A stretch of DNA of 64,000 nt, taken from the NCBI RefSeq assembly GCF_044647545.1, contig NZ_CP172818.1. One strand, given 5' to 3'. The notes beneath the pieces are model-generated. The model worked only from the letters and a program-made list of their open reading frames with translations, made no database searches and was not told the DNA's origin. Source of the stretch: Escherichia coli. GTDB taxonomy: Bacteria > Pseudomonadota > Gammaproteobacteria > Enterobacterales > Enterobacteriaceae. The translations under genes and the position numbers were made by a program. Shown here piece after piece: positions 56,248 to 56,266 of this stretch (positions within the stretch are counted from its first letter, which is position 1; the number at the start of each line of letters is the position of its first letter).

Positions 56248-56266
56248 TTTTTCTCCCTTATTGGCT
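56248..56266 (+). promoter_or_regulatory. Candidate BaeR box in the mdtA promoter
   Basis: TTTTTCTCCCTTATTGGCT, one mismatch to the BaeR consensus TTTTTCTCCATDATTGGC, about 55 bp upstream of the mdtA ATG. Confidence 0.55.

Follow-up and report, generated by a model that had tools for sequence, protein, structure and literature searches.

The closest described counterpart of the element analysed here is the BaeR site of mdtA (yegM) in Escherichia coli K-12 (Baranova & Nikaido 2002; Nishino et al. 2005); Bury-Mone 2009 gives four reported binding sites for BaeR, one of them at the mdt-bae operon. The BaeR consensus, TTTTTCTCCATDATTGGC, stems from Nishino et al. 2005 and is quoted in two further papers (PMC3799227, PMC3915751). 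A BaeR half-site, TCTNCANAA, with the core CTNCA has also been described (Yamamoto 2008; Guerrero 2013), the core having been singled out by Guerrero et al. (PMC3799227). Experiments in Salmonella have established that induction of mdtA depends on BaeR (PMC3160322). Apart from BaeR, the related regulator DzrR of Dickeya oryzae gives a DNase I footprint at desAB that covers two direct CTCCAT repeats with a spacing of 11 bp (PMC10052836).

We analysed a 64-kb stretch of E. coli DNA (the window), in which the plus strand reads TTTTTCTCCCTTATTGGCT at 56248-56266, upstream of mdtA. The genes and the site are as follows:

56248-56265, plus strand: 18-nt BaeR box as published (Nishino-type), TTTTTCTCCCTTATTGGC, 17 of 18 positions equal to the consensus
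56319-57566, plus strand: mdtA, first gene of mdtABCD-baeSR (NCBIfam equivalog NF008589, 721 bits against a cutoff of 391)
57566-60688, plus strand: mdtB (NCBIfam equivalog NF007798, 2244 bits against a cutoff of 1584)

Because the published consensus is 18 nt long, the match comprises 56248-56265 and T56266 lies outside it. The sole departure is a C for A at consensus position 10, which is window position 56257. The initial annotation had counted one mismatch, which is right once the last base of its interval is set aside as extra, and had placed the motif about 55 bp upstream of the mdtA ATG (56319), which fits the 3' end of the motif (about 52-54 nt upstream), its start being 71 nt upstream. 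No second match with three or fewer mismatches to the consensus is present on either strand of the 64-kb window.

When anchored at the ATG, window positions 56225-56326 are 100% identical to K-12 MG1655, motif included, and the distance to the ATG and the operon are the same as well. The column-wise majority of the K-12 sites at mdtA (TTTTTCTCCCTTATTGGC), spy (TTTTTCTCCATAATTGGC), and acrD (TTTTTCTCCACGATTGGC) reproduces exactly the published consensus, and the consensus D (A, G, or T) is the one column in which all three differ. Since the motif is itself the mdtA site of K-12 and so belongs to the trio that rebuilds the consensus, its mismatch is that of a founding site; the label "BaeR-box-like" is therefore correct as to the BaeR box and too weak in its "like". 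The three K-12 boxes have in common TTTTTCTCC, followed after three variable bases by ATTGGC, with identical internal spacing. Near K-12 ycaC, the reported fourth BaeR site, no match was found at three or fewer mismatches, and a literature search with the exact site sequence as the search string found no papers. Among E. coli records, the 39-mer at 56234-56272 is exact in 5293 of 5417, and one sampled E. coli variant of this region is changed at the degenerate D position only. Purified BaeR reportedly binds directly in vitro, in work attributed to Baranova and Nikaido in 2002. The motif is very probably the functional, known BaeR operator of mdtA; as a feature it is already published, and the E. 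coli site is identical to that of K-12, with nothing differing in the motif.

The sibA/sibB-ibs region upstream of the motif, in contrast to the site itself, has scattered substitutions relative to K-12. Two tandem Sib antitoxin RNAs (Rfam RF00113; 55577-55726 and 55913-56055, plus strand, 147.5 and 136.8 bits) are located between yegL and mdtA, with Ibs type I toxin genes opposite them as small minus-strand ORFs. This Sib/ibs stretch is far more variable among E. coli than the mdtA promoter, and its 1 kb is at least 99% identical in 47 of 5422 records. Several complete genomes match the 1-kb stretch 55700-56700 at 100% identity; the genes annotated there are ibsA, an Ibs-family toxin gene, and mdtA. 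The RefSeq annotation of a strain identical over 55700-56700 gives the operon order mdtA-mdtB-mdtC-mdtD-baeS-baeR; the window ends before baeS and baeR, which follow mdtD in a genome 100% identical over that stretch. Because baeSR closes the same operon, the site also gives positive autoregulation.

In K-12, BaeR gave two ChIP-exo peaks ahead of mdtA (Choudhary et al. 2020, Data Set S2; PMC7657598), and since the sequence is identical, these and the other K-12 functional data transfer to the window, although they come from K-12 and not from the strain of the window. The mapped peaks are:

56234-56270 (MG1655 2153931-2153967), unstranded: BaeR ChIP-exo peak_5, S/N 10.96, mapped coordinates (PMC7657598); contains the motif
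56275-56301 (MG1655 2153972-2153998), unstranded: BaeR ChIP-exo peak_6, S/N 14.99, mapped coordinates (PMC7657598)

Expression agrees with occupancy. Deletion of baeR lowers mdtA by log2 -4.0 (~16-fold) in LB with 5% ethanol and leaves it unchanged (log2 +0.07) in plain LB without stress (PMC7657598). The genes mdtB, mdtC, mdtD, baeS, and baeR follow the same pattern as mdtA, and transcripts from mdtA to baeR are lowered by log2 -3.4 to -9.4 (10- to 25-fold or more) in the deletion strain under ethanol (PMC7657598). In vivo BaeR occupancy in K-12 and BaeR-dependent mdtA expression thus come from published data, and the identity of the sequence with K-12 from this study; together the K-12-identical site, the ChIP-exo peak, and the baeR-dependent expression support the earlier proposal of BaeSR control of mdtABCD.

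The two peaks need not have the same meaning. By analogy with spy, where peak_2 coincides with a mapped transcription start, peak_6 would probably represent the RNA polymerase or transcription-start side of the complex. The K-12 spy peaks (MG1655 1825677-711 and 1825823-843) flank the spy BaeR box (1825764-81) and neither covers it, and the upstream of the two falls on a transcription start of spy that was mapped 215 nt ahead of the ATG. With the spy box lying between the peaks and one peak coinciding with a start, the ChIP-exo table is not base-accurate for BaeR contact, and the peaks of this set may mark RNA polymerase or the borders of complexes.

The motif overlaps a direct repeat that extends further upstream:

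56240-56249, plus strand: distal direct-repeat half-site TTCCTCCATT, core CTCCA at 56243-47, 8 of 10 bases equal to the adjacent 10-mer
56250-56259, plus strand: proximal direct-repeat half-site TTTCTCCCTT, core CTCCC, inside the motif, 8 of 10 bases equal to the distal copy
56260-56265, plus strand: ATTGGC module, at the same distance from CTCC in K-12 mdtA, spy, and acrD; at mdtA restricted to Escherichia

Tandem direct repeats with the 10-11 bp period are thus present at mdtA as adjacent TTCCTCCATT and TTTCTCCCTT. A dimer of the OmpR/PhoB family would be expected to bind direct repeats offset in this way by one helical turn. The distal copy has CTCCA and fits the CTNCA core of Guerrero et al. 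(PMC3799227), but it reads CCTCCATTT and meets 4 of the 7 specified positions of TCTNCANAA; the motif itself, with CTCCC and TCTCCCTTA, has two mismatches to the half-site. In its box core of CTCCC, mdtA differs from spy and acrD, which have CTCCA. Probably the operator consists of such a tandem repeat with a 10-bp unit, the reported motif being its promoter-proximal copy.

A scan with MdtA over one genome per species gave 80 mdtA loci, which represent about 30 genera of enterobacteria; for each locus the 140 nt preceding the ATG were aligned, and conservation was scored per position. When Escherichia and Citrobacter are set aside, 57 loci are left, whose aligned 18-mers depart from the consensus at 5-11 positions (median 8), and the 3' twelve bases of the box (56254-65) are 36% identical to the window, compared with 33% for unconstrained sequence upstream. 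Across the 80 loci, only Escherichia and, in part, Citrobacter conserve the 3' two thirds of the box, and the relaxed box TTTCTCCNNNNTTGGC was confined to K-12 and three of five Escherichia loci. Near-invariance is found in three blocks: (G/C)TTTCATAWTTCCTCCATTTTTC at 56231-56253, CTAMACTAGTATCATT at 56269-84, and TTCAGGA.GAGA at 56296-56307. The first of these includes the 13-mer TTCCTCCATTWTT (56240-56252); 69 of the 80 loci carry a single plus-strand copy of it, 77-82 nt ahead of the ATG, and outside Escherichia and Citrobacter it is 98% conserved. From this pattern, the part of the BaeR site that evolution has held fixed may lie just upstream of the reported motif, with the distal half-site as a proposed ancestral anchor of the operator.

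Escherichia and Citrobacter retain the proximal 10-mer, as does a Salmonella-like contig, and CTNCA is found at its place in none of the 57 other loci; since the proximal half-site is unrecognisable there, a strict two-half-site model fails in most genera. Salmonella was absent among the best 120 MdtA protein matches, and the Salmonella-like contig was recovered through a published Salmonella mdtA primer. It keeps the whole 20-mer with both repeats, and CCCTGC replaces ATTGGC. The spy box of Salmonella and Citrobacter, TCTTCA(C/T)AATTGGCG, keeps ATTGGC, and its variation across genera falls only on the N positions of the Yamamoto half-site.

NZ_CP059283.1, labelled E. coli SY3626, has an mdtA promoter and flank that are only 76% identical to the window and resemble the Kluyvera/Enterobacter type, with the order yegD, a single ibs gene, mdtA; its mdtA locus looks atypical or introgressed.

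The purine-rich third block, TTCAGGA.GAGA, is located 12-20 nt before the ATG, which is beyond the usual Shine-Dalgarno spacing, and the sequence that separates it from the ATG varies by indels of 1-2 nt. Further upstream, a conserved block, CATTCAGACGATTCCCGACAGTGTTTCATAA (56208-56239), precedes the BaeR repeats and overlaps a sigma-70-like TTCAGA-18-CATAAT. ATTC occurs at 56209, 56219, and 56239, in 10-bp phase with the BaeR repeats, and by analogy with OmpR arrays this phased block could be made up of extra low-affinity half-sites.

Two hexamers downstream of the repeats resemble a -10 element:

56270-56275, plus strand: proposed -10 hexamer TACACT (TAAACT in most genera, TACAAT in the Salmonella-like contig); T, A, A, C, T invariant
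56278-56283, plus strand: alternative -10 TATCAT, 5 of 6 to TATAAT, with a start near 56290; invariant in the 80 loci

TACACT is favoured because the Salmonella-like contig keeps a -10-like hexamer only at this place: a 6-nt insertion in the 3' half of CTAMACTAGTATCATT destroys TATCAT, and TACAAT stands in the position of TACACT. We infer that TACACT is the most likely -10 element and that transcription starts near 56282, downstream of the motif and compatible with activation. The repeat ends 10 bp upstream of TACACT, there is no conserved -35, and with the -10 at 56270-75 the repeats would occupy about -42 to -23. Relative to a start at 56282, the two ChIP-exo peaks together (56234-56301) run from -48 to +20, which is the extent of an activator and open-complex footprint. 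The 16-mer as a whole (56269-56284) is invariant in about 30 genera, far beyond what a -10 hexamer needs, and it contains the overlapping -10-like hexamers TACACT, TAGTAT, and TATCAT together with a sigma-S-like CTAcACT.

The spacing has parallels at other BaeR targets. A CTCCAY core is followed at 27 bp by a TA.A.T hexamer in acrD, in spy of both E. coli and Salmonella, and in the distal copy of mdtA, the hexamer being TACA(C/G)T in K-12; a shared -10-like hexamer at an equal offset arose in 29 of 200,000 shuffles. Unlike spy and acrD, however, mdtA has at this spacing the upstream copy (56243) and not the ATTGGC-bearing one. Because the 27-bp copy is without ATTGGC, the full mdtA box is one helical turn nearer the -10 than the boxes of spy and acrD. 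The mapped spy start is said to be ~63 nt before its ATG; if so, the spy box would lie far upstream, and the argument from equal spacing would be weaker for spy.

No mdtA-proximal transcription start is present in the start list for uninduced K-12 (Kim 2012), as expected for an activator-dependent promoter. Among the Cappable-seq supplement entries listed, none matched an mdtA start, and the Kim 2012 entries listed contain no start for the Klebsiella mdtA orthologue.

Phosphorylated BaeR, a response regulator of the OmpR/PhoB family, very probably activates the mdtABCD-baeSR promoter through the motif. The full operator is probably wider than the motif and appears to comprise TTCCTCCATT and TTTCTCCCTT in direct succession (56240-56259) and then ATTGGC (56260-65), with the predicted -10 TACACT 10 bp past the repeat in a promoter that has no recognisable -35. 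At the pho boxes of PhoB, tandem direct repeats replace the -35 and lie about 10 bp upstream of the -10. A head-to-tail BaeR dimer may likewise stand in for the -35 contact at mdtA and recruit RNA polymerase. The likeness extends to the 20-bp tandem repeat that ends 10 bp before the proposed -10, to the missing conserved -35, and to a promoter that is silent without its activator; by contrast, the mdtA repeat sequence differs from that of the pho box, its proximal copy is conserved only in Escherichia, Citrobacter, and Salmonella, and the contact with sigma-70 region 4 is only assumed at mdtA. DzrR is similar in being an OmpR-family regulator of an RND efflux pump with direct repeats about one helical turn apart; however, it is not BaeR, its action is reported to be phosphorylation-independent, and its repeats are spaced by 11 bp and those of mdtA by 10 bp. 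The DzrR parallel may serve as a lead for the tandem model of mdtA, not as a test of it.

The tandem architecture, the assignment of the -10 and start, and the polymerase contact are all inferred, and we put the refinement by tandem repeat and geometry forward tentatively, at slightly less than even confidence. Still a little more doubtful, although a serious possibility, is the broader proposal that the fixed, correctly -10-phased BaeR element at mdtA is TTCCTCCATTWTT, that the published box is a second copy of the Escherichia lineage, and that BaeR operators in general are phased arrays of CTCCA-type half-sites. The ATTGGC common to the three K-12 boxes argues that the 18-mer copy is bound in E. 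coli, which counts against a reading in which the distal copy is the bound one. As to the register, sequence alone does not separate binding of the distal copy, of the proximal copy, or of both.

The strongest alternative is that the 18-mer at 56248-56265 is the entire BaeR site and that the invariant block at 56231-56252 belongs to another regulator, such as CpxR, or to a second promoter, TTCAGA-18-CATAAT at 56211-56240. The common core and spacing of the K-12 boxes described above favour it, as does the weak match of the distal copy to the half-site. CpxR has been reported to co-regulate mdtA; however, no CpxR consensus GTAAA-N5-GTAAA with two or fewer mismatches is present in 56100-56320. 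The second promoter was found by a promoter scan with 9 of 12 matches, and both of its hexamers are conserved across genera, but a single match is no more than shuffled sequence gives (mean 1.1), and the lack of a start near mdtA in uninduced K-12 argues that a constitutive upstream promoter is inactive there. The midpoint of peak_5, moreover, is 56252, where the two repeats meet, and not the centre of the 18-mer (56256.5), and with 5-11 mismatches in most genera this reading would leave BaeR control of mdtA without a conserved site. On balance we regard it as unlikely, though deserving consideration, and prefer the wider operator that includes the distal repeat.

It is very improbable that the motif is merely a run of codons within a longer MdtA starting at the in-frame ATG 56199 (455 aa) or at GTG 56172. 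An open frame does run in phase from 56172 into mdtA, and some database entries list MdtA as 455 aa. However, indels of 1-2 nt among genera between the conserved blocks and the ATG break the frame, conservation within the putative extension falls to background (about 0.36), the NCBIfam MdtA model begins at residue 4 of the 415-aa protein, and both the RefSeq and the K-12 annotation start mdtA at 56319. The 455-aa MdtA is probably an annotation artefact; were 56199-56318 coding, the BaeR operator and the promoter would be buried inside coding sequence. A small minus-strand ORF with GGAGG-ATG was also considered and was dropped by eye, its conservation pattern being unlike that of coding sequence.

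A fortuitous match without regulatory function can practically be dismissed: although matches with three or fewer mismatches appeared in 24 of 100 dinucleotide-preserving shuffles of the window, none of the 100 gave a match with at most one mismatch, and the motif lies directly upstream of the best known BaeR target and is identical to a K-12 site with a ChIP-exo peak and BaeR-dependent expression.

Through its control of MdtABC, BaeSR adds to the intrinsic tolerance of novobiocin, bile salts, metals, and some beta-lactams. The BaeR site of mdtA is thus relevant to the regulation of resistance, and it has been in the literature since 2002-2005. What the present analysis adds is modest and consists of the cross-genus comparison, with its invariant distal CTCCA copy, placed in canonical register to the proposed -10, and its lineage-specific 3' part of the box. 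Searches for the BaeR regulon in other Enterobacteriaceae with the E. coli 18-mer, as were made in several papers, would miss orthologous mdtA promoters, which have 5-11 mismatches to it; a motif built around CTCCA and phased with the -10 would serve such searches better.
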